This document shows positions 6,405 to 53,046 of a stretch of DNA of 58,580 nucleotides, piece by piece. The translations under genes and the position numbers were made by a program. How positions within the stretch are numbered: position 1 is the first letter of the stretch; each line of letters begins with the position of its first letter. The notes below the pieces were generated by a model that searched no databases, was not told the DNA's origin, and saw nothing but the letters and a program-made list of their open reading frames with translations. The stretch covers positions 9,567 to 68,146 of the forward strand of contig JBHLQM010000007.1 in assembly GCA_048884785.1 (NCBI GenBank), read 5' to 3'. Origin of the DNA: Candidatus Thorarchaeota archaeon (lineage in GTDB: Archaea > Asgardarchaeota > Thorarchaeia > Thorarchaeales > Thorarchaeaceae).

Positions 6405-7358
6405 TTGAAAACTGTAGGTAAAGCTGTGGGAGTTTCCATTGCAATCCCGAGCGATGCCTATTATTCATTTTTCAATAGCCCCTATGTTGGACATCAGCAA
6501 AGTAGCTCTTTAGACATTTATCCCGCACACGGTGAGTGGGGAGGCTCAGGATTTTCTCCTGTTTCAGGGAGAGTTACAATTGTTCGTCGATTCAAGATGG
6601 GGAGGAAGAAGGATTTTGTCACATCAGATTATGACTATGCCATAGGAATCCAGCCATCGAATGATGAAGAGCATCTAGTTCGCTTACTGCACTGTCATCC
6701 TGTTGTCAAAAGAGGTGATTCCATTGAGGCCGGGGAAGAAGTCGGCTCACTGATACGATCTAGGTATTTTAATTTCTGGACCGCCCCCCATTATCATATA
6801 GACGTGATGACATCAAGAGATTTTAATCGATCTTCACAATCTCATACAATCACATCAGCCATCAATCTAAGTCCTGGGATTAAGATTCACGGACAATATC
6901 CCCTTAACGAGGTTGATTGGACAATAAGATCAGTCACTGCAGATTGTGCAATTGCATCATCTTCAAGATTGAAGTTTGGTGAATTGGATGGCATCTATGG
7001 ACACATTGGGGAGATTGGATCAGGAGTAGCTGGGCTTCTTGATGGAGGGATAAATCACTATCCACTTTGCGGCTTTTTTGGAGCAAATGGAAACATCGGG
7101 ATGGTGCACATTGGTAACGAAATAATAGGTTCACTGGATGGGAATCCAAGGGGTGCCCCATTTTTCCATCAAAATAGACTTCATTCAATTTTTCTGGATG
7201 AATTAAAAATCAGAGGAATATCGACCTACATTGCTTCCAAACACCAGCTAGTATCTGGTCTTCTTCCTCTGAAACTAATCCCACTTGAATACAAGGGATT
7301 TGAGAATTTGTTGAAAGAAGGCGATACATGTAGGCTTATTCTTCTTCCCCATGGCTAA
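6405..7358 (+). CDS. Hypothetical protein with M23/duplicated-hybrid-motif-like domain
   Basis: 'H...LDIYP', 'SPVSGRV', 'LLHC.P.VKRGD.I.AGE.VG', 'PHYHID'. Confidence 0.55.
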   Translation: MKTVGKAVGVSIAIPSDAYYSFFNSPYVGHQQSSSLDIYPAHGEWGGSGFSPVSGRVTIVRRFKMGRKKDFVTSDYDYAIGIQPSNDEEHLVRLLHCHPVVKRGDSIEAGEEVGSLIRSRYFNFWTAPHYHIDVMTSRDFNRSSQSHTITSAINLSPGIKIHGQYPLNEVDWTIRSVTADCAIASSSRLKFGELDGIYGHIGEIGSGVAGLLDGGINHYPLCGFFGANGNIGMVHIGNEIIGSLDGNPRGAPFFHQNRLHSIFLDELKIRGISTYIASKHQLVSGLLPLKLIPLEYKGFENLLKEGDTCRLILLPHG

Positions 7359-7635
7359 CGATTTGATCCTCTTCAAGGGTCATACTCCATGGCCCCAGAC
7401 CGGATACCCACCAAAAGAGAACAACCCCAATATCGATGACAATCACCCAGAGGGCTGCGGTCCAGAAGAACTGGAATATCAACTCATATTCTGTTGCCGG
7501 AGGTCGTCCCCATGCTAGAAGTGAGAAGAACATGCCAATTTCAACAAAGATGCCAATTAGTATTGCAATCTGAGTAAATAACAGCATTTTCTGCTCTGTG
7601 ACGAATGTCTTGAATCTTGTTGCAGCCTTCATCAC
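7336..7635 (-). CDS. Small membrane protein (2 TM)
   Basis: 99 aa with two hydrophobic helices; fills the gap between genes. Confidence 0.65.
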   Translation of the reverse strand: MMKAATRFKTFVTEQKMLLFTQIAILIGIFVEIGMFFSLLAWGRPPATEYELIFQFFWTAALWVIVIDIGVVLFWWVSGLGPWSMTLEEDQIVSHGEEE

Positions 7636-7726
7636 AAATACCCGTAGAATGTCTAATCAAACCTCAATATAGTTCTTTGGTGACATCACCCATAACAACA
7701 ATGTTAAGGCTTTTCGAATACCAGAT

Positions 7727-8719
7727 GTGATGGTTCAATTGGTAGAATACGTAAGGATTTCACTCGGAACTGCACTTCTTCTAGGTTTACTAGATGGCAC
7801 TCCCCCTGGCAATTTTGCAACTGTTTTTCTCATGACCTACAACGAAGAAGGTTGTCGAGCCAATTGTGCATTTTGCCCTCAGGCATTGGAGAGCAGCTCA
7901 AGTCCTGAGATGCTATCAAGAATTGGATGGCCACAATATAGACTAAAAGATGTTGTAGATTCCATACCGGAAACCAAAGGAATTCAGCGAATCTGTATAC
8001 AATCTCTCAATTATCCAAATGCCATTCAAGATGTTAAAGATATCAGCAAGAGAGTTCGTTCCGTATCAGATGCGCCTATGTCAACCTGTATTCATCCTAT
8101 TTCTAAAAAGGAAATGAGTGGCCTAAAACGGGATGGAATAAACAATATTGGAATCGCAATTGATGCATGTACACCTGGTCTCTTTGATTCAGTCAAAGGG
8201 GTATTTAGAAATGGACCATATTCATGGGAAAGTCATTTCGCGGCAATCCGAAACGCTCAGCAGGTTTTTGGGAAATCCAATGTCACCACACATTTGATAA
8301 TTGGTTTGGGAGAGTCAGAGGAGGATGCAGCGAGATTTCTCTTTAGAATGAATGAAATGGGAGTCAAGGTAGGTCTCTTTGCATTCACAAGTATCAAAGG
8401 GACAGCATTTGAACAACGGCATCAGCCAGATCTAAAGAAATATAGACGTATACAGGCGCTTCGACATCTGATAAGTCAAGGAAGAATCACTGAGGAAGAC
8501 ATATCATTCGACCATATTGGAGTCATGAAATTCAAGTCGGATCCGAATTCTCTTAGAGAAAGCTTATCATCGGGCGGAGCATTTCGTGTGACTGGATGCC
8601 CTGGATGCAATCGTCCCTATTACAACGAACGCCCTAAAGGACCGATGTTCAACTATCCCAGACCCCTCACTGACGATGAACTTGCTGAGGCACTAAAAGA
8701 TACAGGCTTGGTGAATTGA
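7727..8719 (+). CDS. lipS2: Radical SAM protein, LipS2-like subunit of the archaeal two-protein lipoyl synthase
   Basis: CRANCAFC radical-SAM motif plus C-terminal VTGCPGCNRP (cf. LipS2 TxGCPxC(N/D)RP); overlaps a lipoate ligase gene. Confidence 0.75.
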   Translation: MMVQLVEYVRISLGTALLLGLLDGTPPGNFATVFLMTYNEEGCRANCAFCPQALESSSSPEMLSRIGWPQYRLKDVVDSIPETKGIQRICIQSLNYPNAIQDVKDISKRVRSVSDAPMSTCIHPISKKEMSGLKRDGINNIGIAIDACTPGLFDSVKGVFRNGPYSWESHFAAIRNAQQVFGKSNVTTHLIIGLGESEEDAARFLFRMNEMGVKVGLFAFTSIKGTAFEQRHQPDLKKYRRIQALRHLISQGRITEEDISFDHIGVMKFKSDPNSLRESLSSGGAFRVTGCPGCNRPYYNERPKGPMFNYPRPLTDDELAEALKDTGLVN

Positions 8720-9489
8720 AAATCGAAGAATTCAGGTTTCTTGACCTAGAAGTGAATAACGCCTTTCGAAATATGGCAATTGATGAAGCCATAATGCTCT
8801 CGGTTAAAGATGGTAAATCACTACCGACTCTAAGGTTTTACCGATGGAAACCTTCTGCTGTATCAGTGGGTACCTTTCAAAGTATGCTGGATGAAGTTGA
8901 TGTTGAGTTCTGTAAAAGAAACAACATTGATTGCATAAGACGTATCACCGGCGGCGGGGCAGTATACCATGATTTTAATGGGGAAATCACATACAGCATC
9001 ATTCTTCCGAAAGGTCACAGACTAGCACCTGATGATATCATAAAATCATACAAAATAATATGTCAAGGGATAATACGAGCACTAAGCAATCTTGGTATCC
9101 CCTCTGAGTTCAAGCCAATAAACGATGTTATCAGTGGCGGAAAAAAGGTATCAGGAAATGCACAAACAAGAAGGCACTCTTGCGTACTGCAACATGGGAC
9201 TACACTACTCAATCTTGATGTTGAGTTAATGTTCAGCATTCTAAAGGTCCCACAAGAGAAGATCTCAGACAAAATGATAGCAGATGTCAAGGACCGAGTA
9301 ACATCAGTATCTGATGTTCTTGAGAGAAGAGTGGCTATTGGAGAACTACGGAATGCTCTTCAATATGGCTTCTCAGAAGCACTGGCAATCAAACTAACCA
9401 AAGGCGAATTATCGACGGACGAGGAAAGAATGGCCAAAGAGCTTGAGAGTTCCAAGTATAGGAGTACTGACTGGAATTTCTCGAGGTGA
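8716..9489 (+). CDS. lplA: Lipoate-protein ligase A, catalytic subunit
   Basis: NMAIDEA, LRFYRW, RRITGGGAVYHD, KVSGNAQ, QHGT. Confidence 0.9.
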   Translation: MKIEEFRFLDLEVNNAFRNMAIDEAIMLSVKDGKSLPTLRFYRWKPSAVSVGTFQSMLDEVDVEFCKRNNIDCIRRITGGGAVYHDFNGEITYSIILPKGHRLAPDDIIKSYKIICQGIIRALSNLGIPSEFKPINDVISGGKKVSGNAQTRRHSCVLQHGTTLLNLDVELMFSILKVPQEKISDKMIADVKDRVTSVSDVLERRVAIGELRNALQYGFSEALAIKLTKGELSTDEERMAKELESSKYRSTDWNFSR

Positions 9490-10026: not shown

Positions 10027-11508
10027 GTGAAGCCTCTTGGTACTATTACCAAGTACTATCCGTTCATAGAGGAAAAACTCCAGAGGACTCTGAATCGATT
10101 AATGGATGAATCTGAGTGTTATTTTGAATTTGCTCAAAAACTGGCGAAGTATGTAATGGAGAATGATGTTGATGTTCATCTTGCATATCTTGCAACGAGA
10201 CTAATTTGGTGGACGCAAGTTCCAGATCTGATAGAATCTATCGCACTGAAATATCATGATTATGAACCGATACAGGCTTGGAAGTACCCACTTAGAGGCG
10301 CAATCACTGATCAGGTTAACTACGAAATGGAGTTTCAAAAGACACTAATTAAAGCCATAGAGCAATGTACAGACGATTGGATACGAGTTGAACTTTACCT
10401 ATTAGATGCTGTCTTCAAGATTCCTTTTTCCGTTCCTGATGTTGTGAAGTCATTGGATGCGGCAAGCCTCCTAATTGAAGACAACGAGAGGCTCGAATGT
10501 TTTAGTTCTTGGTTTGATGTCATTGAGGGAGTAACCAAAAAAAGAGAAATGACCTTGGACGAAACATGGAATCTTTTAGAGAGAGGAAGAAAAGCTGCAA
10601 AAATGTACAATGATGATATTGTCAGATACGAAAGTCTCCTGTATCAAGCCTCGATTAGGCGCGATGTGGATATCCAATCATCTCTGGATCTATACGAGCA
10701 GGCATATAGTTTAGCAACTGCCTTGGAGATTCCATTCTTCATATCAGAGGTAATGAGTGATTGCTCTGTTTCCTATGAGTTATCAGGTGAATTCGATTTG
10801 GCCGTAGCGAGCGCTTCTGAAGCTGTGAATGAATCTCATGGGATTCATCCGAATACACCGCTACTAATTCTAGCCCGCATATATTCGCGACTAGGAATGG
10901 GCGAAAAAGCTCTTGAGAGCATTAACAGTATCGACGAAACTCTAGATGAAACTAGTATTCATGTCTATCACCTAAGAAAGGCTCGCGCACTTCTTTTACT
11001 AAACAGGCTTGACGACGCCGAACACCATCTAGAATTTGCCTATCCTTTGGTTCTAAGAACTGACTGGGAAATGCGCCTAAGCGAATACTACCATGTGACT
11101 GGTCTTCTGGAATATGCGAGAGGAGAACTACATAATTCGTTGAACATGCTTCAGAAATCACTCGAGATTCTTGAACGTCGAAACCACCCTCTTTCGAAAA
11201 TACCAATCCTTAGAGATCTAGCCAACGTCGAACTTTCAATAGGTCTAGAATCAAAGGACTCTGAAGGCGCAATTGTCCCTGGTCAATGGATGACCTGCCT
11301 TGAGAACTTGATAAACAACCACACTTTACCGGGACTCAAAATGGAATTCGCACTTCTTAAGTCCGACTTTTATCTCAATTCAGGACATATTCAAGATGCT
11401 CGTCAGATTCTTGTAGATGCATTGAATCTCTCTGACTCAGATGCGTTCAGGACCCTACGATTTGAATTGAAAAAGAGGTTACACGCTATAGATTTGCTAT
11501 GGATATAG
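10027..11508 (+). CDS. TPR-repeat protein
   Basis: Repeating helical pairs (e.g. 'LARIYSRLGMGEKALE', 'GLLEYARGELHNSLNMLQKSLEI'). Confidence 0.75.
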   Translation: MKPLGTITKYYPFIEEKLQRTLNRLMDESECYFEFAQKLAKYVMENDVDVHLAYLATRLIWWTQVPDLIESIALKYHDYEPIQAWKYPLRGAITDQVNYEMEFQKTLIKAIEQCTDDWIRVELYLLDAVFKIPFSVPDVVKSLDAASLLIEDNERLECFSSWFDVIEGVTKKREMTLDETWNLLERGRKAAKMYNDDIVRYESLLYQASIRRDVDIQSSLDLYEQAYSLATALEIPFFISEVMSDCSVSYELSGEFDLAVASASEAVNESHGIHPNTPLLILARIYSRLGMGEKALESINSIDETLDETSIHVYHLRKARALLLLNRLDDAEHHLEFAYPLVLRTDWEMRLSEYYHVTGLLEYARGELHNSLNMLQKSLEILERRNHPLSKIPILRDLANVELSIGLESKDSEGAIVPGQWMTCLENLINNHTLPGLKMEFALLKSDFYLNSGHIQDARQILVDALNLSDSDAFRTLRFELKKRLHAIDLLWI

Positions 11509-11650: not shown

Positions 11651-13042
11651 ATGGAAAAAGATTCTGAAATGGGAAATGTGACTCTTTTTGTCGTACTTGC
11701 TGCAGTCGCGGTGATTATTCTCTTTGAAGTATCGACATATAGCTATCTTTTGTTCCATTCAGCAGTCGAGCTTTTCTCAATTATCATAGCAATGTCTGTT
11801 TTTGTCATTGGATTGAATGCGGATAGGTTCTCTCACAATGAAATTTTTAGAGCACTTGGAATAGGCTACTTGTTTGTTGGAATTTTGGATACACTCCATT
11901 TGCTTGCCTTTAAGGGAATGGGGGTGTTTCCTGGTTTTGATGCCAACCTTCCGACGCAATTGTGGTTAGCCGCAAGAATCCTAGAGTGTTCAAACTTTCT
12001 TCTGGCACCGCTCATATACAAACGAAGTTCTCCACGATGGGCTATTTTCTCAGGAAATCTAATTTACAGTATTACGTTGACAGGATTGATATTCTCAGGA
12101 TATTTTCCTGTTGCGTATATTGAAGGAGTGGGGCTTACCCTATTCAAAGTGGGAACGGAATATGTCCTTATTGTATTGTTATTGGTTGCAATGGTTGCTT
12201 TTACAAGATACGATTTGGGGCTTGAAAAAAGACTAGTACGCCTTATCACATATGCACTCATTTCAACTGCCCTTGCTGAGATTTCTTTCACTCTTTATGT
12301 CGATGTTTACGGGATTATGAACATGATTGGACATTATCTTAAGCTGATATCCTTCTACTTCATCTATAGGGCAATGGTTGTTGGTCCTCTCTTTACTCCA
12401 TATGAGGTTATGTTTAGAAAAATCAAAAGAGATGAAGAAGCGCTAAGAATTGCCAATAAAACAATGAGGCACGATATTATCAACGAACTAGCAATTATTC
12501 AGACCTCACTCGAACTCTATTCTGAAATGGGAGATGACTCAGTTCTGAAAGAAGCAAATGAAGCGACAAAGAGAGGTATCAACCTGATACAATCAATTAA
12601 AACCTTGGAGAATTCGGACAACCGGGCACTTGATGCGAATTTCCTAAGAATTCATGATATGCTTTTGACATCAGCCCAAGATTCCAAATTGAAGGTGTCC
12701 ATTGAAGGCTCAAGTGAATGTCTAGCTAGTGATGCAATGTCATCTGTATTTCACAATATCATCCAAAATGCTGAACAGCACAGTAATTCAGATAGAATAG
12801 AGATTTCTCTAAAGGACGAGAAGGGCTTCTGCATCATAAGCTTCAGAGATTTCGGCAATGGAATTCCTGAAGACTTACACGAAAAGATATTCGAAGAGGG
12901 ATTTACCTACGGAGAAAATGCAGGAACTGGTATGGGTCTCTTTCTTGCTAGAAGAATAGTAGATAGATATAATGGGACGATTAAGTGTCTTAGCGGGTTT
13001 CCAAACGGATCCGTCTTTGAAGTAAGATTGCCTGCTCCTTAG
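11651..13042 (+). CDS. Sensor histidine kinase with MASE3 membrane domain
   Basis: MASE3 motifs (LLFHSAVELFS, DTLH.LAFKGM, NLPTQLW); H-box RHDIINEL, N-box NIIQNA, G1 DFGNGI, G2 GTGMGL. Confidence 0.9.
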   Translation: MEKDSEMGNVTLFVVLAAVAVIILFEVSTYSYLLFHSAVELFSIIIAMSVFVIGLNADRFSHNEIFRALGIGYLFVGILDTLHLLAFKGMGVFPGFDANLPTQLWLAARILECSNFLLAPLIYKRSSPRWAIFSGNLIYSITLTGLIFSGYFPVAYIEGVGLTLFKVGTEYVLIVLLLVAMVAFTRYDLGLEKRLVRLITYALISTALAEISFTLYVDVYGIMNMIGHYLKLISFYFIYRAMVVGPLFTPYEVMFRKIKRDEEALRIANKTMRHDIINELAIIQTSLELYSEMGDDSVLKEANEATKRGINLIQSIKTLENSDNRALDANFLRIHDMLLTSAQDSKLKVSIEGSSECLASDAMSSVFHNIIQNAEQHSNSDRIEISLKDEKGFCIISFRDFGNGIPEDLHEKIFEEGFTYGENAGTGMGLFLARRIVDRYNGTIKCLSGFPNGSVFEVRLPAP

Positions 13043-43903: not shown

Positions 43904-44230
43904 ATGAACGAGAATGAACAGCTCAAGAACAAGCTCTTCAAAGGACTTACTGAACACGACATCCTGACGTGGGAGGAGGAAAAGATGAGATTCCAACGAA
44001 GGATGGGGCAGAAAGTGACTGATCTCCAATTTCTACGCCATCTTCTAATGATTGCATCTCGACCGGTGATATCAACGAAAGAGGGCATCTCTACAGGATA
44101 TATAACTGGCCAAGGACCAATATACGAGAAAGGTGATAGTCTTCTGGAGAGATACCGACAAAAGCAAGTTGATCATGTATCAGATGTGTCAAAACCCATT
44201 AGGAAATTGGACTCAAAACTTTCTCACTAG
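43904..44230 (+). CDS. Hypothetical protein
   Basis: ORF fills the gap; GGAG before ATG 43904; no recognised domain. Confidence 0.6.
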   Translation: MNENEQLKNKLFKGLTEHDILTWEEEKMRFQRRMGQKVTDLQFLRHLLMIASRPVISTKEGISTGYITGQGPIYEKGDSLLERYRQKQVDHVSDVSKPIRKLDSKLSH

Positions 44231-44266
44231 ACACAAGCCTATCTCATAATACACAAACCCTCAATC

Positions 44267-44298
44267 TTATATACCATTTGTTCACTAGTTACTAGTGA
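44267..44298 (+). promoter_or_regulatory. TATA box and palindromic operator candidate
   Basis: TTATATA (44267-44273), then the perfect inverted repeat TCACTAGT-T-ACTAGTGA (44282-44298). Confidence 0.6.
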
Positions 44299-44345
44299 CC
44301 AATTGTACACTAGCTAAAGCGATATTGTGGAAGAGTGTGAATTAA

Positions 44346-44498
44346 ATGCTGGAAAGAACAAGGATTGACGATGAAGATGATGCAGGTCAGCAACAGACAA
44401 ACAATGACCTGCAGCAGGGATCTTGGTTTGATGATGGATTGTACCAAGAATGGCTTGTTTTCCTATATGGAATCTGGAACAGGATAGACTATTTGTAG
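44346..44498 (+). CDS. Small 50-aa acidic/aromatic ORF, absent from the ORF track
   Basis: MLERTRIDDEDDAGQQQTNNDLQQGSWFDDGLYQEWLVFLYGIWNRIDYL*, between the promoter and the regulator gene. Confidence 0.5.
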   Translation: MLERTRIDDEDDAGQQQTNNDLQQGSWFDDGLYQEWLVFLYGIWNRIDYL

Positions 44499-44540
44499 TA
44501 GAACCAAATCTGTATTTAGACGCGCAGGGAGAGATGACGC

Positions 44541-45251
44541 TTGCCTCAAGAAGACCAGGAGAAACCAGACGATCTAGATTTAGTGTTTAAAGCACTTGGA
44601 CACACCACACGAAGGAGGATACTCAGACTACTCGCTCAGAGGCCTAGGTATCCATATGAACTCAGCAAGCTGCTATCCTTTGAATTGAGCAAAAGTGTGA
44701 CTTCTCGGGTGGTCATTAAACATTTAGAAGTGCTGCAAAATGTGGGGATAGTTTCCAGAGAAACAGGAGAGAGTGATCTGGGTCCTGACAGGACATACTA
44801 TCGACTTAATATGGGATTTGGGCTTTCAACTACTCTCTTGCCCAATACCTTTGTTGTGCGTTTGACTCCACATGGTGGAACTATTAAACTTCCAGCCGGG
44901 TTTGTGATCCCATCGGTAAGTACAGATGTCAAAGCTGTTCGGTATCTTCTGAACGACCTTCAAAAGATCGATCGTCGACTTACTTCGTTGGATGATGAAA
45001 GAACAAGATTGGCTAATCTGAAGGGGCAGATAATCCAGAGGGTGGAGGACATAATGCAGGAGCACAACTGGGATGAGATAAGTTGCTATCGAGTAAGAAC
45101 CCTACTTAATCCAGTCCGCTCAGAAGCAGAGGGAGAGGAATCTGCCGAGCCTATGGATGAAGTAATGGATATTTTTGAGAAGCAAATGGGTAGTTCCAAG
45201 ACATCTAAGGAAAAGAAACCAAGACAAGAAATATCAATTGAATTCGATTGA
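44541..45251 (+). CDS. ArsR-family regulator with coiled coil (COG1777 / archaeal heat-shock-regulator-like)
   Basis: 'FKALGHTTRRRILRLLAQRPRYPYELS', 'KHLEVL...GIV', 'GPDRTYY', C-terminal coiled coil. Confidence 0.82.
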   Translation: MPQEDQEKPDDLDLVFKALGHTTRRRILRLLAQRPRYPYELSKLLSFELSKSVTSRVVIKHLEVLQNVGIVSRETGESDLGPDRTYYRLNMGFGLSTTLLPNTFVVRLTPHGGTIKLPAGFVIPSVSTDVKAVRYLLNDLQKIDRRLTSLDDERTRLANLKGQIIQRVEDIMQEHNWDEISCYRVRTLLNPVRSEAEGEESAEPMDEVMDIFEKQMGSSKTSKEKKPRQEISIEFD

Positions 45252-45257
45252 GAAACT

Positions 45258-45959
45258 CTACCAATTGAGGTCAATTCCCCAATCTGTTCTATCTGGTCCT
45301 TGCATACTCGGGACATATTCAATCGGATTGTAGGGCATTTCTATACCAGTTGATTTCTTTATGGTAAGATAGTTCTTGCCTCGAGATGTTGAGAGTGTTA
45401 CTATTCCTTGAGCCAAAGAGAAGAGCTGATTGATTGTAACCGAGTCTGCTGTATCTGCATGGATAAGATAATACTCTATGGATCCATTTCTGATGCTCTC
45501 TTCTACGCTCTCTTTAAAGAATTGAACCACATCTCTAGCTGAGAAATCGATAAGAAGAGGAGTTAATGCTTCAAAAGCTATGACACGAGGTTGCAGGAGA
45601 TTCCTTAGACTTCTCATCATGATATTAATCTCATGAAGATGTGGAGAGCAAGTATGTCTTCCTACGGTTTGCTGTCCGTAATTGACCTCTAGTATTTGAA
45701 ACTCATCATTTTGCTTCTTTGCCATATCATCAATTAGAGTTCTATTCCTTGCTTCAGTTATCACATTAAGAGTTCTGAGTCCATGCTTGGCGGCTTTTTG
45801 AATAACAGTCGTCATGAAAAGGTCATAATGGCTTTCCTGTGAAGCCATTACCAGATACACATATCCCTTTGGTGGCTTAGTGAGTAAACTATCAATGATG
45901 TTTTGGTGGTTTTTGCTAATTTCTCTGTTTACGCCAGCCATTACAGCCTGACCTCTCAA
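45258..45959 (-). CDS. Degenerate KaiC/RAD55-like RecA-fold protein (no Walker A)
   Basis: 'IDSLL...PPKG', 'VIAFEALTPLL', 'LFSLAQGIVTL', 'LTIKKSTG'; GxxGxGK absent. Confidence 0.65.
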   Translation of the reverse strand: MRGQAVMAGVNREISKNHQNIIDSLLTKPPKGYVYLVMASQESHYDLFMTTVIQKAAKHGLRTLNVITEARNRTLIDDMAKKQNDEFQILEVNYGQQTVGRHTCSPHLHEINIMMRSLRNLLQPRVIAFEALTPLLIDFSARDVVQFFKESVEESIRNGSIEYYLIHADTADSVTINQLFSLAQGIVTLSTSRGKNYLTIKKSTGIEMPYNPIEYVPSMQGPDRTDWGIDLNW

Positions 45960-46339
45960 TCCTCAATTCTCAGATGTTTTCTGATAGTTTCAACCAATGC
46001 CTTACCTGAAAAGGGCTTTACGAGATAGTCGTCGGCACCTGCTTCTTGCCCTTCTTTGATGTCACGGCTCAATCCTTTAGCGGTAAACATCAGGATTGGC
46101 ACTTTTTTGAACCTATCTTCCCCCTTTAGTCGTCTACATACCTCGAATCCATCCATTCTTGGAAGCATAACATCAAGAAGGATGAGATCGGGACTCTCTG
46201 AATGTGCGAGCTCTAATGCAGTTTCTCCATCGAATGCGCAAGCAACTTCGAAGCCATGACTTTCAAGGAATTTCTTTGCCAACTCAGTTGTTATCTGCTC
46301 GTCATCAACAACCAAGATTAGTGGCTTTTTTTCACTCAA
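45956..46339 (-). CDS. Stand-alone response regulator receiver
   Basis: VVDD, LLDVMLP, FTA, KPF. Confidence 0.93.
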   Translation of the reverse strand: MSEKKPLILVVDDEQITTELAKKFLESHGFEVACAFDGETALELAHSESPDLILLDVMLPRMDGFEVCRRLKGEDRFKKVPILMFTAKGLSRDIKEGQEAGADDYLVKPFSGKALVETIRKHLRIED

Positions 46340-46352
46340 GTATCATCAATCC

Positions 46353-47738
46353 TTATACAATGGGCATTAAATCGTAATCAAGGAATCCTTCTGAGAGAAT
46401 AGGGCGTAATGCAAGATAATTGGTTCTTGGATTCTCTCCGACAACTCCCAGCACGCCGCATATTTCTTGAACACTGAGATGTACATGGTGAGATATTGAT
46501 TCGCTCTTTATTCCTTGATGTCTGCTTAGGATCGTTATTGTTGTTCTATTTGTTCTCTGAAGTGATGAGGACATTTCTGCAATCATCCCACGAACTCCTG
46601 CCGGGCCATACATGTTCTCCAATGTATCCAAAGCAAAAAGCTCCGTCACCTCATGCTTGAACTTCCTTTCTAGTTCTCCTGCCTCATATCTAATTTCCTG
46701 GAGGGTTTTAAGAGGATCAGAATCTATGGTTCTAACATTTTCGTATTGACCCAAATAATGGCGACCAAAGAAAACTACCTGAGCTTCTACTCGTGGTTTA
46801 TCAACAAAATGTGCTAGATTCTCTATGAAGAATTCGGGAGACCAGCCCTCGGGAAGAAGAATAACTGCAGGACGTCCTAGCTCCAAATGATTTGAGAGGA
46901 AGGGTATATAGATAGTTTCAAGGTATGGAACACCCAGATTCTCAACCTCAATTAGACTGAGTTGTCCTTTTCTGAATCCTCCGCCCAACATTTTATCCAG
47001 ACTGTGATTGCCTGTTGACATTCTATCTGGCGAAGGGTCAGCAATTGGTTCGCGACTTACTGTGATTGCCGGGTATTGATGTAAATACCAAGGAATGTAT
47101 GTAAATCGTCCATCATAAAGGGTAAAGAGAAAAGTATCCTGACTTATGGGTTGAGATCTCATTTTCTGCAGAATTATCTGGCGGTGCATCCGCTGATTTT
47201 CCCGTATTTTTTCAAGAACTATAACGCCATCTGCTGAATGGTGGAGAGTGTTGCAGTCAAAACTCGAAGAGGTTTCCTCTGAAACAAGAATTAATTTCCG
47301 ATTTTCTCTTCTGGCAGCGTGAATAATTGACTGTTGAATCTCATATCTATTGTCAGATGGTATAGGTTGCACAAAATCCGTCCAAGAATCTACTATAACC
47401 AGCTCTGCCTCGCATCTAATTTTGGTTTCCCCCAGAAGGTTGCAAAGATGGTCCTCTAAGGATGATTGATGAGCAATTTCTAGGTTCAAAGGACGTCTAT
47501 AGGATGAAAGAATATGGCGCTTTGCCCAATCAGGAGTTGTAGTGCCTAATTCTTGGTCAATCGCATTGAAATTCTCAGTACTGGTCAAAATCATGAATGA
47601 ATTCTTGTAATGTCTGAAAATCTCCTGGACAAAGAGTGATTTGCCAGTTCCGGGTTTTCCTGTGACAACAAGTACAAATCCTGTATTTGATGACAGTGCA
47701 TCCTGTATACTCGGAGGTACTTCGCCTACTTCACTCAT
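46353..47738 (-). CDS. Two-domain GvpD/KaiC-like ATPase (N domain intact, C domain degenerate)
   Basis: GKPGTGKS, VIVDSW, ADGVI, QKMRS; second domain 'STGNHSLDKMLGGG' lacks Walker A. Confidence 0.82.
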   Translation of the reverse strand: MSEVGEVPPSIQDALSSNTGFVLVVTGKPGTGKSLFVQEIFRHYKNSFMILTSTENFNAIDQELGTTTPDWAKRHILSSYRRPLNLEIAHQSSLEDHLCNLLGETKIRCEAELVIVDSWTDFVQPIPSDNRYEIQQSIIHAARRENRKLILVSEETSSSFDCNTLHHSADGVIVLEKIRENQRMHRQIILQKMRSQPISQDTFLFTLYDGRFTYIPWYLHQYPAITVSREPIADPSPDRMSTGNHSLDKMLGGGFRKGQLSLIEVENLGVPYLETIYIPFLSNHLELGRPAVILLPEGWSPEFFIENLAHFVDKPRVEAQVVFFGRHYLGQYENVRTIDSDPLKTLQEIRYEAGELERKFKHEVTELFALDTLENMYGPAGVRGMIAEMSSSLQRTNRTTITILSRHQGIKSESISHHVHLSVQEICGVLGVVGENPRTNYLALRPILSEGFLDYDLMPIV

Positions 47739-47834
47739 TGGACGATTCCCTTGCGCTTTTCAATCATATCAATAACTAACTTATATACATAAGTACGGAT
47801 CATCGAAGTGCGCCGGTCCAATCCAATTTCATTG

Positions 47835-49430
47835 CTATTTCGACAATCTTTCAATGAAATCAAGTAGATAGGGACATATACCACCGGTCTTCCATAGTAG
47901 ATTTCCATTGCATCCTTTTCGGGGTGCTTGAGTTTCTACACGACATTCAAACGTTTTTTCTCTGTCAAAAAGAATACAGAGCTCACTCTGCAAGTCAGGA
48001 TCCTCTATGAATTTAGCCCTCACTTTTCGCATTAGTGTAACATCATGGTGTTTTACCCAGTCAGAAACATCACCTAGTACTGATTTTGCCTCTTCAATCA
48101 GAGCCTTTTCCGGCTCCACCTCTTGTGCAAAGGACGTCATTATCTGACTAACTCTTGCTGTGAATGCAAGCAATGGATTGCCCGTCTGAACAGCCTTCTT
48201 TTCTGCAAGAATATAGAGCTTCATGGCATCCTTGAATTTTTCCTGCATATAGTTGGCGTCTGCAAGCAAGAAAGGCAAAAGGATCAGAAGATCCACCATG
48301 CCTGATGCTTCAGCTATTTCTGTGCTTTCCTTATAATTCGTAATTGCCTCCTCAAAATTACCCTTTCTAATCATTATATCTCCAAGGTTTATTTTGCAGG
48401 TGGCAATACCTCGCATGTACTCAGCTTCTTGGCTTATTTCTAGAGCTCGCTGATTGTATATCTCCATTTGGTCAAATTGATCAAGACTTCTATCAATCTC
48501 TCCCACATTGATAAGGGTTCGAGCAAGTCCAATTTGATTATTCAGCTGTTGTTGGGTAATCAGTAACTCCTCGAACTGATCTCTTGCATCTTGGTTCTGT
48601 CCACGATCCATGTGAAGAATACCGACCAGATTTCGAGCATCTGATACTCCTTGGAGATATCCCATCCGCTCATATTTTTGTAGGGCTGCCTTAACAAGAT
48701 TCATTGCACGGTCGTATTCGTGGGATTCTTCCAAAATTCTTGCTCTGTAGTACATTATATCTGTGAGCGCGAGTTCATGGTCCATAACTTTAGCAGTTTC
48801 TTCCGCAGAATCAAGTCTAACATAGGCTTCGTCACGCAAACCCATTTGAAGGTCAATGTGTGCCATCAGGATTCGGGCTCTCAGAAGAGAAGCTTGCACC
48901 TTATTTCGTATGAGTTCATCCTTTGTTGTAGCTAATGTGACCTTATCGATGCTTTCCAGAGCTATCGTTCTTGCTCGTTCTGTGTATCCCAAATCTATGA
49001 GGACTGATGCCAATTGAACAGAAAGCTCTGCAAATGCGATGTAGTCCTGTCCTTGCCAGGCTTGATTGACGTATGTCTGTAGATTGTTCAGCCACCGTGG
49101 ATCAAGGCTCTGTCTGCAATATGCTGCAGCAGCATATCCTTTGCCTACTATACTGGAACTGCTTTTCGCAATTATCTGATTATAGCCATAAAGTCCTCTG
49201 AGAAAAGCTGCTTTCGCACAGATTGCCAAAAATCCCTCACTTCTGTTTCTCCACTCTCCACTCCCAACATATTCAGTTAAGACATCTGTAAAATGCATGA
49301 AACGATCCTTTCCAGATCTGTATCCAGCGGCAAGTCTGCTACCTATATCGTCCTTCTCAGATTGTTCTAGCCGGTCTATATACATAGAAAACTCCGGTAT
49401 AATTGGTTTATCAAGCAATACTCTCGGCAC
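47835..49430 (-). CDS. TPR-repeat protein with C-terminal 4-Cys segment
   Basis: Roughly 40-aa repeats with 'NLVG/NVG/NLG' signature; tail 'LC...EC...GC...IC'. Confidence 0.82.
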   Translation of the reverse strand: MPRVLLDKPIIPEFSMYIDRLEQSEKDDIGSRLAAGYRSGKDRFMHFTDVLTEYVGSGEWRNRSEGFLAICAKAAFLRGLYGYNQIIAKSSSSIVGKGYAAAAYCRQSLDPRWLNNLQTYVNQAWQGQDYIAFAELSVQLASVLIDLGYTERARTIALESIDKVTLATTKDELIRNKVQASLLRARILMAHIDLQMGLRDEAYVRLDSAEETAKVMDHELALTDIMYYRARILEESHEYDRAMNLVKAALQKYERMGYLQGVSDARNLVGILHMDRGQNQDARDQFEELLITQQQLNNQIGLARTLINVGEIDRSLDQFDQMEIYNQRALEISQEAEYMRGIATCKINLGDIMIRKGNFEEAITNYKESTEIAEASGMVDLLILLPFLLADANYMQEKFKDAMKLYILAEKKAVQTGNPLLAFTARVSQIMTSFAQEVEPEKALIEEAKSVLGDVSDWVKHHDVTLMRKVRAKFIEDPDLQSELCILFDREKTFECRVETQAPRKGCNGNLLWKTGGICPYLLDFIERLSK

Positions 49431-49576
49431 TCTCTCTCCAGAATAAATACTAATGCATTTCGATGACGCACCGCCTTTTTAAATCAAAAGGGTTCTAGTA
49501 TTTTTGTCCGCGCTTTTTATTATTGGTGGGTAAAGATTAAATCATAATAGCATAAAAAGGGCTGAGGAGAGGAATA

Positions 49577-50332
49577 ATGGCGAAGAATAGGGTAAGCAGT
49601 GGTGTTTCTGGGCTTGATAATTTGCTGAATGGAGGGTATATGCACGGACGGTCCATGTTGTTGGCAGGAGGGCCAGGAACTGGCAAGAGCATTTTGACAT
49701 GGCATTTCATTTTTGATGGGATAAGAAAAGGCGAGAGTGCTGTGTTGCTATCACTCGACCAAACCTCTGATGTCCTTATTGAGGACATGAAGGCATTTGG
49801 ATTTGAACCTGACAAAGCTATCAGTGACCAGAAATTTACAATCCTGAGTGGAACTCTGCGTCTTGTTCCTACTGAAGCAGGATACGACTATGTCATAGGA
49901 TTTGATCATCCACTCTTTCGAGAGAAACCGTTTACCATTCCACGCCTGGCAGACCTTGTGAAGAAGAGATCTGATGAAACAAAAGCTACTCGAATTGTCA
50001 TTGATGGATTAGGCCCCTTATTGGAGTTGGCAGGCAATCGATTCGAAGTGCGGCAGATGGTGTATAGCTTCATCAAAGAGCTTTCTAACCCAAATGCAAC
50101 AATCTTACTTACACATGAATTGAGATCTCTTACAGGAGCACAAAACGACGAAATGCCGTACTTCATTGCCGATGGTGTGATTAAGCTAGATATGATCTAT
50201 TCAACAGGAGATTATGTCAGAACACTCAGGATTGTCAAGTTAAGAGGAACTAGTCATACCATGCGACCTGTAATGTTTCGAATAGAGTCAGAAGGTGCAA
50301 AAGTCTATCCTGACGCAAGAATCCCTGAATAA
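49577..50332 (+). CDS. Single-domain KaiC/RAD55-like ATPase
   Basis: SSGVSGLDNLLNGG, GGPGTGKS, RIVIDG, ADGVI, VKLRG; GAGGA upstream. Confidence 0.88.
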   Translation: MAKNRVSSGVSGLDNLLNGGYMHGRSMLLAGGPGTGKSILTWHFIFDGIRKGESAVLLSLDQTSDVLIEDMKAFGFEPDKAISDQKFTILSGTLRLVPTEAGYDYVIGFDHPLFREKPFTIPRLADLVKKRSDETKATRIVIDGLGPLLELAGNRFEVRQMVYSFIKELSNPNATILLTHELRSLTGAQNDEMPYFIADGVIKLDMIYSTGDYVRTLRIVKLRGTSHTMRPVMFRIESEGAKVYPDARIPE

Positions 50333-50336
50333 GAAT

Positions 50337-50726
50337 CTACAGTACTGGCTCAACCTTCCTCATCATATCCAAAAGGTCATACATTGAGAAAGGTTTCTGG
50401 ATGTAGGCACGGGCACCAGCAACCAATACCTGATTTCCGAAGTCTTCAACAATATCGGCAACTGCAATGATTGAAATCTTGGCATCTATATCCAAGATCT
50501 TCTCAATAATACGCATTCGCTCTCCTTCTGTCATCATGAAATCGAGCACAATGATACTTACTCTGTGTGAGCTACACATCGCAAGAAGTTCATCAGGGGT
50601 TTCAGGTTCACCGATTACATCATATCCGGCTTCCTCTACTGCCATTCTTACAAGTGACCTTAGCAAAGGAACATCGCCCGCAATTATGACTTTCAAGAGG
50701 TACACCTGTTCTTGAACATAAAGCAA
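50337..50726 (-). CDS. Atypical receiver domain (pseudo-receiver)
   Basis: 'IIAGD' instead of DD; LDF Asp and KPF kept; Ala at the Thr/Ser switch ('AVAD'); start possibly TTG 50696. Confidence 0.82.
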   Translation of the reverse strand: MLYVQEQVYLLKVIIAGDVPLLRSLVRMAVEEAGYDVIGEPETPDELLAMCSSHRVSIIVLDFMMTEGERMRIIEKILDIDAKISIIAVADIVEDFGNQVLVAGARAYIQKPFSMYDLLDMMRKVEPVL

Positions 50727-50742
50727 AAATCAAAAGCGTGAA

Positions 50743-51105
50743 CTAGGTTGAAACTGCCGATTCAACCAGGTCCAACATATGACGAATCGTTACTGGTTTG
50801 AGACCAAAGCTCACAGCACCATTCTTCATAGCCTGTTCACGGACATTCGCATCAGCACTGATGAATACAATTCTGGCGTTTGGTTCTATTGACAGAATCT
50901 CTTTCATCGCCTCAAGACCATCCTTATTCGGCATGCGATGATCCAATATTAGAACATCAGGTTTGGTATCCATAGACATATACTTCTGAATGGCTTCTTC
51001 ACCATCAAAAGCATCCGCGACGACCTCGTGCCCTTTTATCGAAAACACATCTTTGTATAATCGATGTAGAATGGGTTCATCGTCAATTATGAATATAGAC
51101 ACCAT
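50743..51105 (-). CDS. Stand-alone CheY-like receiver
   Basis: IIDD, LDHRMP, FISA, KPV. Confidence 0.93.
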   Translation of the reverse strand: MVSIFIIDDEPILHRLYKDVFSIKGHEVVADAFDGEEAIQKYMSMDTKPDVLILDHRMPNKDGLEAMKEILSIEPNARIVFISADANVREQAMKNGAVSFGLKPVTIRHMLDLVESAVST

Positions 51106-51971
51106 ATATCATGCCTACCTTATGAGCTACTCAACGTCTTTTGATTTCTGCTGTTAACTCTGTATTGAGCATTCTCTACTCATACATTCAGTTAAACTTA
51201 GCTTGTTTCAAACGCAGTGTTTCTATTTAGTTGTATGGTATAAAAATGAATATGGGATTCATATTACATTTGGGTTCTCTGCACCGATTCCGGATTCATC
51301 GCATATTCCTATTGCTACTTCCTATTTATTCCAAGATATTTTTGGTATTCCAACCTTTCGATTTTTCGACAACCATTTTTTTGTGTAACATTAATTATTA
51401 TACTAATTATTTATACAATATGCCACTATTATGTAATATTAATTCCTATGCATCGGCAATGTGTTGCATATATAATTATAGATTACAATTTTAACAAATA
51501 TAGGTTATATAATAATCAAATTTCTTCCCAGGTGTCATCCATATTCATATAAACAGCGTATTCGATAATTGAGTATGATTAGTCAATTCAAAACATGATC
51601 CCTTTGTATTTCATACTCATTTAGTGTGTACTACTACCTTTTTCCGAGGATAATCAGGGTTATTTGCATCAAATATTTACCCGAAGATATTATAACACGA
51701 TTACTGGGTATGGGAATGTATTCTGTTTTCTTGTGGATGCGATCATCCAATTAAGGGATTGATTAACCCAATGAACATAAAATATATAGATAATATTAAT
51801 AATTAATGGGAATTATAATAAAATGCATTATATGGTACCAAATTGTACCACAAAATGCATATCTACTTAACTTAAACGGATATCGTAATAAATGACAAAA
51901 TGCAAAACTGAGGGATAGAAATAATTAATATGACGAATGTTTGCATAAACATATATTAAAAATAAATTGAT
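51106..51971. other. AT-rich non-coding island (about 0.87 kb)
   Basis: 10/60 G+C in both 51361-51420 and 51781-51840; no credible ORF; longest gene-free stretch in the window. Confidence 0.8.
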
Positions 51972-52580
51972 CTATTTCGGTTTTTTTAATTGGAATTTGG
52001 CATCCTGTACCTTCCGATCAATTTCAGTCCTGAGTACTTGTACTTCCTTTCGTATAGCATCGAAACGTCGTTTCTTAGCAATTTCATCAGCATTCTCAGC
52101 TAGCGTTTCTGCCTTAGATGATATCTCCTCAAGACGTTCTTCACTCCATACATTGATATCGTCACTGTACAATTCATCCAATGAGTCAGATGTATCCCTA
52201 AGATCATCTAGGAGTAGCCTGGCTGTAGTTTCATCAAGAGTGTACTCAATTTCATCTCTCAGCTCAATAGAGTTTTCTGGACCAAAAACAATTAGCTGGG
52301 ACATATGTTCCGAAACACTCTGTAGCAACTTTGAAAGCTCATCTCGTGCATTCCTGAGTTCACCTTGTTCGAGGGAATGTTGTGCCTTTTGTCGCTCAGA
52401 GCGAATCCTTGCAAGCAAACCTTGACTTGCATGATCACCGTCCATCGCTTTTGCGTCTGCTTTACTAGCTGCAGTGGACGTATAGTTTTGTGCAAATCTA
52501 ATCAGGATGATAAACAGAATTGCTGCTAGTGCAATTCCTGCAAGAAGTATTAGTTGATAAAATACATCACCCTCTTGCAT
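51972..52580 (-). CDS. Membrane-anchored helical/coiled-coil protein
   Basis: N-terminal TM helix followed by a charged helical domain. Confidence 0.72.
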   Translation of the reverse strand: MQEGDVFYQLILLAGIALAAILFIILIRFAQNYTSTAASKADAKAMDGDHASQGLLARIRSERQKAQHSLEQGELRNARDELSKLLQSVSEHMSQLIVFGPENSIELRDEIEYTLDETTARLLLDDLRDTSDSLDELYSDDINVWSEERLEEISSKAETLAENADEIAKKRRFDAIRKEVQVLRTEIDRKVQDAKFQLKKPK

Positions 52581-52849
52581 TAGGAACCCCCTATGTAGGC
52601 CATTTCTTGGTCAAACATGTTTCTGTTTTTCAAGTAGTTGGCTAATAGGTGTACTCATACAAGTATTTCCTGAGTATTACAAGGTTCGAAATACAAACAA
52701 ATCTCCATATACGTGTACATCTAAGTTTCGATTCTCAGCGAAACCCGTTCTCTCCTCCTCCTCATCATTGAAACCTCCTCGAAAACTTTGACAACAAAAT
52801 TCAATGCGTTTACGATTACTCTGATACGTTTACTACCATGACTCCTTTC

Positions 52850-52955
52850 GAGAAGGCGTGTACTGGCACTGACATAGAGGGTCCGTAGGGGATTCTGGAC
52901 CCTGTGGGCGTCTAGAAGGTCCTCTGTGGGTACACGCTTCTCTCTTCTTTTTTTT
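52850..52955 (+). ncRNA. Candidate structured RNA (long interrupted hairpin plus oligo-T)
   Basis: Nested helices 52850-52863/52930-52942, 52873-52881/52920-52928 and 52893-52900/52910-52917, with G-U pairs; T-tract follows. Confidence 0.5.
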
Positions 52956-53046
52956 GACCCTAATTAACGTGAGTACCTAGTCGTATGTATGTTTGGCTGT
53001 TGGCAGAGTTGGCAACTTATAAGAAGCTGCCACCAAATCATAAGCC

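Follow-up and report, generated by a model that had tools for sequence, protein, structure and literature searches.

The window analyzed here is a 58,580-nucleotide stretch of a Candidatus Thorarchaeota genome (NCBI GenBank assembly GCA_048884785.1, contig JBHLQM010000007.1, positions 9,567 to 68,146 of the forward strand). At 45258-51105 it carries seven contiguous genes, confirmed by an open reading frame (ORF) listing and by Pfam and NCBIfam scans, which encode three KaiC-like proteins, three stand-alone receivers, and a TPR protein (Table 1). An earlier note on this DNA, made from the letters alone, had described these genes as a signaling cluster, and the ORF coordinates together with Pfam, profile, and fold matches agree with its gene count and its domain identities. 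By comparing the window with related loci, we found that the locus is two-layered: TPR531, RR129, and RR120 form a core, and the three KaiC-like genes with RR127 form an accessory set.

Table 1. Features of the locus in window coordinates
Feature	Position	Strand	Description and evidence
HTH236	44541-45251	+	ArsR/Phr/SurR-like winged-helix protein; Pfam HTH_5, 2.5e-6
dead233	45258-45959	-	233-aa KaiC-fold protein without a P-loop; profile and fold
RR127	45956-46339	-	Stand-alone receiver; Pfam Response_reg, 1.8e-31
Kai2dom461	46353-47738	-	KaiC-like double domain; Pfam KaiC PF06745, residues 22-209, 5.9e-14
TPR531	47835-49430	-	TPR protein; Pfam TPR_12, 8e-22
TPR531/KaiC251 divergent intergenic region	49431-49576	none	Sequence reading only
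KaiC251	49577-50332	+	Single-domain KaiC-like protein; Pfam KaiC PF06745, 1.3e-45
RR129	50337-50726	-	Receiver with a degenerate acidic pocket; Pfam Response_reg, 2.2e-14
RR120	50743-51105	-	Stand-alone receiver; Pfam Response_reg, 4.3e-21

Six of the seven genes lie on one strand and KaiC251 lies on the other, so the cluster comprises at least three transcription units. Promoters are presumed to lie between TPR531 and KaiC251, where A/T-rich, TATA-like stretches can be read by eye. The earlier note had called part of the cluster tightly coupled, and the 13-nt gap between Kai2dom461 and RR127 stands. The 4-nt overlap between RR127 and dead233 probably does not, as it hinges on an upstream TTG start; two dead233 orthologues have a stop at that position followed by an in-frame Met, and the true start is probably at 45941, which would leave a gap of 14 nt. 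Upstream of RR120, the 866 nt at 51106-51971 are A/T-rich and contain no ORF of 110 aa or more, and the GC content falls to 0.36 in window positions 50001-52000 versus about 0.42 to 0.45 elsewhere. Regulatory sites or a small RNA could lie in this stretch; an Rfam scan of 44000-53000 gave no family match.

Walker A and Walker B motifs, the K-x-R motif, and a catalytic Glu-Glu pair have established roles in RecA/KaiC ATPases, and the three KaiC-like proteins differ in which of these they retain. KaiC251 scores 156 bits against KaiC PF06745 (gathering threshold, 26.6 bits) and matches KaiC chains at 1e-33 to 1e-39. Across 10 orthologues its Walker A sequence GGPGTGKS, the Walker B residue D143, and K221/R223 of the K-x-R-G motif are invariant. 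At the catalytic Glu-Glu site it has D61-Q62, with "sldq" aligned over the "tfee" and "afee" of KaiC, and four other KaiC-like genes of this genome have EE, ET, ED, and TD at the same position. Judged by these motifs, KaiC251 is probably an ATP-binding protein in which the catalytic Glu pair has been changed to Asp-Gln. Two KaiC251 reading frames elsewhere are broken: the orthologue in G004 (L020:13694-14449) has a single in-frame TAG in place of the Asp or Glu that the other orthologues carry at codon 104, and at one of the two G303 loci (the second copy, L092) the gene is interrupted by stops while the remaining cluster is intact. Either early decay or assembly errors would account for these breaks. 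Separately, elsewhere in the window genome, contig C42 (G000, 7300-9300; L133) carries tandem single-domain KaiC-like genes, one with EE and one with TD, beside a 111-aa frame with a subthreshold KaiB match (22.1 bits versus a cut-off of 27); these may form a separate KaiBC-like unit.

Kai2dom461 combines a live N-terminal domain with a dead C-terminal one. Its AlphaFold2 model (predicted local distance difference test [pLDDT] score, 80.6) is a double RecA-like domain that Foldseek aligns over about 480 to 500 columns to full-length KaiC (E about 1e-23), with a relative domain placement that differs from that of KaiC (template modeling [TM] score, 0.36 to 0.38). In the orthologue alignment, the N-terminal domain keeps G27, G30, G32, and K33 of Walker A (GKPGTGKS), D117 of Walker B, and K192/R194 invariant, and it has E55-N56 at the catalytic Glu-Glu position. 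Where the second Walker A would be, the C-terminal domain has EVENLGVPYLET in all 12 orthologues and in 8 relatives from outside the family. No part of the protein is more conserved than this domain, which lacks a P-loop. Its profile matched neither the protein's own N-terminal domain nor dead233, and its first 57 columns alone match KaiC251 (probability, 90%).

The same live-N/dead-C design is visible in the alignment of the wider Kai2dom461 family of about 470-aa proteins, which comprises 562 clusters (50% identity) at an E value of 1e-30 or lower and has matches in 86 of 301 genomes of the phylum. In four loci of another Asgard family (L058, L060, L061, and L062), relatives with 26 to 28% identity stand in a conserved trio, flanked on one side by an ORF of 102 to 107 aa and on the opposite side by a protein of about 725 aa, which in L061 carries metallo-beta-lactamase/beta-CASP domains. 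This arrangement suggests that the other family gives its Kai2dom461-type protein a different partner set.

The third protein, dead233, had no match in Pfam or NCBIfam. Its profile, however, aligned with the N-terminal domain of Kai2dom461 over about 185 columns (hhalign probability, 86.7 to 90%; E, 1.5e-6 to 4.4e-6) and only weakly with KaiC251 (probability, 2.3%). Foldseek searches with its AlphaFold2 model (pLDDT, 87.5) placed KaiC, PH0284, FlaH, and PH0186 first (E about 1e-12; TM, 0.65 to 0.71), with the FlaH structure 4yds among the best structural matches. By profile and predicted fold, and not by sequence score, dead233 belongs to the KaiC superfamily, so that profile and structure assign the KaiC fold to all three proteins. 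In the profile alignment, MASQESHYD stands where the N-terminal domain of Kai2dom461 has GKPGTGKS, the Walker B Asp is replaced by Glu (F-E over V-D), and K-K-S replaces the K-x-R motif (over K-M-R of Kai2dom461). The best explanation for this 233-aa form without a P-loop is that it would be a nucleotide-blind copy of the first domain of Kai2dom461. A dead233 relative with 27% identity occurs in an unrelated context in the second family of the order (G037, L023:9345-9986), where it is a solitary gene flanked by a radical-SAM gene and a 387-aa gene with no annotation; a P-type ATPase and a large surface protein are encoded nearby. Thus, a KaiC-fold protein without a P-loop exists outside the cluster too.

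These identities bear on the name that the earlier note had given to Kai2dom461, "GvpD-like," and on the idea that the KaiC-like proteins are RadA/RAD55- or GvpD-type factors, serving DNA repair or protein-turnover regulation, with the receivers as unrelated neighbors. Kai2dom461 relatives in Baldr-, Odin-, Hod-, and Helarchaeota and in Thermoplasmata are publicly annotated as RAD55 family ATPases, GvpD P-loop domain-containing proteins, or AAA ATPases, and GvpD_P-loop PF07088 does match Kai2dom461 and 8 of the 12 orthologues. The Kai2dom461 match is marginal, however (26.2 bits versus a cut-off of 24), while KaiC PF06745 gives 52.4 bits (threshold, 26.6) and scores higher in 12 of 12 members. 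The basic region GvpD_bR2 (PF20440) was matched in a single member of the 12, at 0.0026, and the best structural matches are those named above and not RadA; NCBIfam RadB and RadA matches are tiny. No gas-vesicle gene was found in the cluster or in the flanks scanned, and in a genome-wide gvpA search the control itself matched nowhere. By these features Kai2dom461 falls outside GvpD, and we regard a RadA- or GvpD-type role as distinctly unlikely.

We next consider the receivers. RR127 is canonical (DD, D56, T86, and K108, invariant in 14 of 14 orthologues), as is RR120 (DD, D55, S83, and K103, kept in 9 of 9). The three stand-alone receivers claimed earlier are all present, with one correction: in RR129 the first acidic residue is Gly in all 9 orthologues and the second is variable, and the phospho-acceptor Asp and the Lys are retained. 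When the five positions of the PF00072 receiver were scored, RR127 and RR120 had all five and RR129 qualified by domain only. Because CheY_Halo is among the best NCBIfam matches of RR129 (43.1 bits) and RR120 (58.9 bits) and because KaiC251 reaches 57.6 bits against ArlH, these receivers might instead be CheY-type chemotaxis regulators and KaiC251 an ArlH-like archaellum component. The scores are far below the cut-offs of 200 and 215, no archaellum genes lie in the cluster, and no CheW was found in the 91%-complete genome by a search whose control matched in 8 of 14 genomes; we give the chemotaxis explanation scarcely any credence.

TPR531 consists of a conserved, family-specific non-TPR N terminus, TPRs at about residues 130 to 420, and a C-terminal domain. 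Its tail carries four Cys residues that are invariant in the alignment (C485, C496, C507, and C519; C-x10-C-x10-C-x11-C; about 47874-47978) and that form a possible metal or redox site. No Pfam family matched the tail to explain the domain, and an ESM Atlas search with it returned no hit of at least 0.9 and no TM score reaching 0.5. The protein occurs in 71 of 86 family genomes and in all 16 genera. Its C-terminal domain was found in 64 of 76 window-family genomes versus 0 of 224 others in the phylum sample, so the "Asgard module" of the earlier note is confined to one Thorarchaeota family. Elsewhere in the window, at 10027-11508, a second TPR protein (493 aa; TPR_12 and TPR_MalT-like) is encoded directly upstream of a MASE3-HATPase_c histidine kinase (11651-13042). 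It is not a close paralog of TPR531 (best E, 0.015), and the pairing may hint at a TPR-kinase connection in this organism.

Weak TPR_MalT-like and AfsR-like matches of TPR531, and the patchiness of the accessory set within genera, would fit an anti-virus defense or STAND-like surveillance system built from an ATPase and a TPR sensor. PADLOC, however, returned generic REC, TPR, HTH, and P-loop matches and no system, and neither a nuclease nor another effector domain was found at the locus. The neighbors are housekeeping-like (DUF389, LysE, and GNAT), and the locus occupies a fixed chromosomal position and not a variable island. We consider a defense function very improbable.

To define the layers of the locus, we first compared synteny in 14 loci. 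We then took a region of about 20 kb around each full-length match to TPR531 and mapped every cluster protein onto it. The survey covers 71 loci from 69 genomes, the window included; the genomes are related and mostly fragmented metagenome-assembled genomes (MAGs). A set of 31 related loci comes from MAGs labeled Candidatus Thorarchaeota (22), Promethearchaeota (4), and unclassified archaeon (5). Among the first 14 loci, 9 showed the full seven-gene order, with protein identities falling as low as 35 to 60%. In the larger survey the order was present in 21 of the 71 loci, and a further 13 are cut by contig ends and consistent with it; a lack of conserved gene order, which the earlier note had named as a refutation, was thus not observed. 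One locus (G303b) has only KaiC251 disrupted. In four (G017, G142, G170, and G304), one to three KaiC-like genes survive as interior remnants; no copy is intact, and the remnant in G170 is weak (E, 7e-9). The other 32 have no trace of a KaiC-like gene. In the 36 loci of the last two classes, none of which has an intact KaiC-like gene, RR129 and RR120 come immediately after TPR531; among loci with contig room, only G030 departs from this. Because the trio persists in these 36 loci, TPR531 is not a mere scaffold for KaiC-like proteins, the role that had been proposed for it.

The three KaiC-like genes come and go together. Among the same 86 family genomes, the C-terminal domain of Kai2dom461 was found in 33, dead233 in 36, and KaiC251 in 32. 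By hand tally, all three genes are present in 28 genomes, none in 48, and a partial set in 10; of these 10, 6 are truncated by contig ends, 2 show decay, and 2 (G277 and G176) were not inspected. In a sample arranged by family, dead233 was found in 19 of 36 window-family genomes, in the single genome of the second family of the order, and in 0 of 23 genomes of other families. A TPR531 tree was built from 69 rows, without two loci whose TPR matches were short. On it, presence of the KaiC set requires 14 changes, of which at least 8 are forced by well-supported branches. Shuffling presence over the tree gave a mean of 23.4 changes, and 0 of 500 shuffles were as low as 14. Since the three genes occupy two sites and both strands and are nevertheless kept or lost together, the pattern supports the interdependence of the paralogs, and it is the pattern expected from subunits or steps of one machine.

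The same data bear on whether these genes are neighbors by recent common descent only, as part of the ordinary synteny of a conserved region. Every locus comes from one family, and mem400, orf115, and HTH236 in the flank are syntenic as well, as such descent would predict. However, the order survives at the low identities given above, at which the far flank (cc202 and GNAT) does not, and descent alone does not lead one to expect that genes at two places would vanish together through repeated, tree-forced changes. Additionally, the adjacency of Kai2dom461 and RR127 recurs in two other families. Given these points, we find an explanation by common descent alone unlikely.

The recurring adjacency was seen in 2 of 8 Kai2dom461 loci from other Asgard families, where the receiver is 52 to 59% identical. 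With custom alignments, the predicted complex of Kai2dom461 and RR127, the one pair for which multimer prediction was run, scored 0.52 (runs of 0.52, 0.53, and 0.50) versus 0.02 for the best control; contacts agreed by at least 97% between runs, and partner pLDDT was at least 84. In the calibration of this score, the mark was reached by 58 of the 80 solved complexes tried and by 2 of the 110 mismatched pairs; only 7 of those 80 complexes, but both passing mismatches, had scores at 0.60 or under. The tool rates the band that holds 0.52 as more often wrong than right unless the pairing was likely beforehand. The prediction lends weak support to the binding of RR127 by Kai2dom461.

The input to the receivers may come from elsewhere in the genome. 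Described earlier as "kinase-less," the cluster is so locally: Pfam found neither HATPase_c nor HisKA in the seven genes, so that no kinase is co-encoded as in a classical two-component system, and no kinase, KaiA, KaiB, or gas-vesicle domain was found in them or in the flanks scanned. The label does not extend to the genome, which has 17 HATPase_c matches outside the cluster; 13 of these score at least 57 bits and lie in frames of 430 to 1226 aa. One, the MASE3 kinase noted above, lies in the window 32 kb from the cluster. Given these matches and the lack of any in the cluster, we infer phosphorylation by distant kinases. The genome has 5 receiver matches, 3 of which are in this cluster; with so few receivers and so many kinase-like genes, the cluster may be a main funnel of two-component input in the window genome. 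As the earlier note stated, no kaiA, kaiB, or gvpA gene is present in the cluster by family scans, which for KaiA were not accompanied by a KaiA-directed search; for KaiB no match at threshold was found genome-wide, the best being 22.1 bits versus 27 on another contig.

On the output side, HTH236 is convergent with the cluster and stops 6 nt short of dead233; it adjoins the cluster in full and reduced loci. Its NCBIfam scores for Phr_regulator (45.8 bits) and SurR (33.6 bits) are both far below cut-off. From its position and domain, it may be a candidate output regulator or a conserved neighbor only.

Taken together, these results lead us to favor, with somewhat better than an even chance, a lineage-specific signaling locus of one Thorarchaeota family, built of the core trio and of an accessory set whose three KaiC-like proteins work as one unit. 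The core would be an operon-like trio with RR120 as a normal phospho-acceptor, RR129 with its crippled metal pocket, and TPR531 with its private four-Cys tail, and the accessory set would add a third normal receiver, RR127, to KaiC251, Kai2dom461, and dead233. In this scheme, histidine kinases encoded elsewhere would phosphorylate RR120 and RR127, and the receivers would dock on TPR531 and Kai2dom461. The KaiC-like proteins would assemble, in a nucleotide-dependent way, into a mixed oligomer by which the signal is gated or prolonged, and output may pass through the adjacent ArsR/Phr-like HTH236. Thus, the interpretation in the earlier note is, as a whole, partly supported: the interdependence of active and inactive paralogs is supported by their being kept and lost jointly, while their assembly into hetero-oligomers and their contacts with receivers would be steps beyond that pattern.

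Besides the low band of the complex score, several observations weigh against this scheme. The genomes are not independent of one another, and because the MAGs are fragmented, some absences are possibly assembly gaps. The TPR531 tree is unrooted, so the direction of loss rests only on the four loci with remnants. Of the 36 KaiC-less loci, 12 keep an intact RR127, which is to that extent independent of the KaiC set, and 6 of the 8 Kai2dom461 loci from other families have other neighbors in place of a receiver. HTH236 is retained in loci that lack the KaiC set, and the 10 loci without it are all core-only and of one clade. By a single query of limited sensitivity, only 5 of the 71 loci have a kinase-like gene within about 9 kb, and its position varies. 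Finally, among 31 family genomes the number of receiver matches varies between 0 and 27, so the high share held by the cluster in the window genome is not general.

A different source of the receiver state has also to be weighed. A mixed ring of one or two poorly hydrolyzing ATP-binding subunits and nucleotide-blind subunits, and not a histidine kinase, might set whether the stand-alone receivers are phosphorylated or which conformation they adopt; such a ring could be a phosphodonor of the KaiC type, or it could serve as a slow nucleotide timer that is read by RR127. We judge the ring unlikely. If it does exist, it would provide a kinase-independent input to receivers that has been bolted onto an older receiver/TPR/four-Cys sensor core.

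Whichever way the signal enters the signaling locus favored here, its natural variation makes it a compact test case for the idea that KaiC-like ATPases are signaling hubs native to archaea, an idea almost untested biochemically. The repeated joint loss argues that the three graded paralogs work only together, and the core trio shows the working of the system without KaiC. The three small receivers could be phosphorylated in vitro, and the regulatory wiring of Asgard archaea is of wide interest.

The proposal that KaiC-like ATPases serve as archaeal signaling hubs, the description of inactivated "iKaiC" domains, and the KaiC-REC fusions of Methanosarcinaceae are all credited in PMC5847659 to Makarova et al. 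2017 (mBio), and the hub idea is repeated in PMC13700489. The present locus shares with the hubs KaiC-fold ATPases linked to receivers, inactivated KaiC domains beside active ones, and signaling presumed to run through protein-protein contacts and not through DNA-binding response regulators (PMC5847659). It differs from what is described there in that its components are separate genes and not fusions, in its three graded paralogs (one with an altered catalytic pair, one half dead, and one fully dead), in the private TPR/four-Cys protein and two receivers that survive without a KaiC gene, and in an accessory set that is all-or-none across at least 8 changes.

Cyanobacterial KaiC, with its pathway from SasA/CikA to RpaA, resembles this system in the double RecA-like fold shared with Kai2dom461 and in having a receiver protein as a partner. 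In contrast, the second P-loop is dead and the catalytic EE pair is altered here, and the cluster contains no KaiA or KaiB and no adjacent SasA-type kinase. The scores are low, at 79.6 and 16 bits for circ_KaiC (TIGR02655; cut-off, 546) and 123 and 37.8 bits for PRK09302 (cut-off, 408). ArlH/FlaH likewise has a single RecA/KaiC-like domain of about 230 to 250 aa, and it binds ATP with little hydrolysis; NCBIfam ArlH scores of 57.6 and 23 bits versus a cut-off of 215, with no arl genes in the cluster, set it apart. Haloarchaeal GvpD shares with Kai2dom461 a P-loop N-terminal domain followed by a second region without a P-loop, whereas the marginal Pfam score below that of KaiC, the basic region in a single member, and the absence of a gvp context in the cluster distinguish the two. 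This cluster was not found in the literature searched, a comparison to which the neighborhood tables of Makarova et al. 2017 did not belong. Within that literature, the components and the general idea are known, and the architecture, its two layers, and the repeated all-or-none loss of graded paralogs appear to be new.

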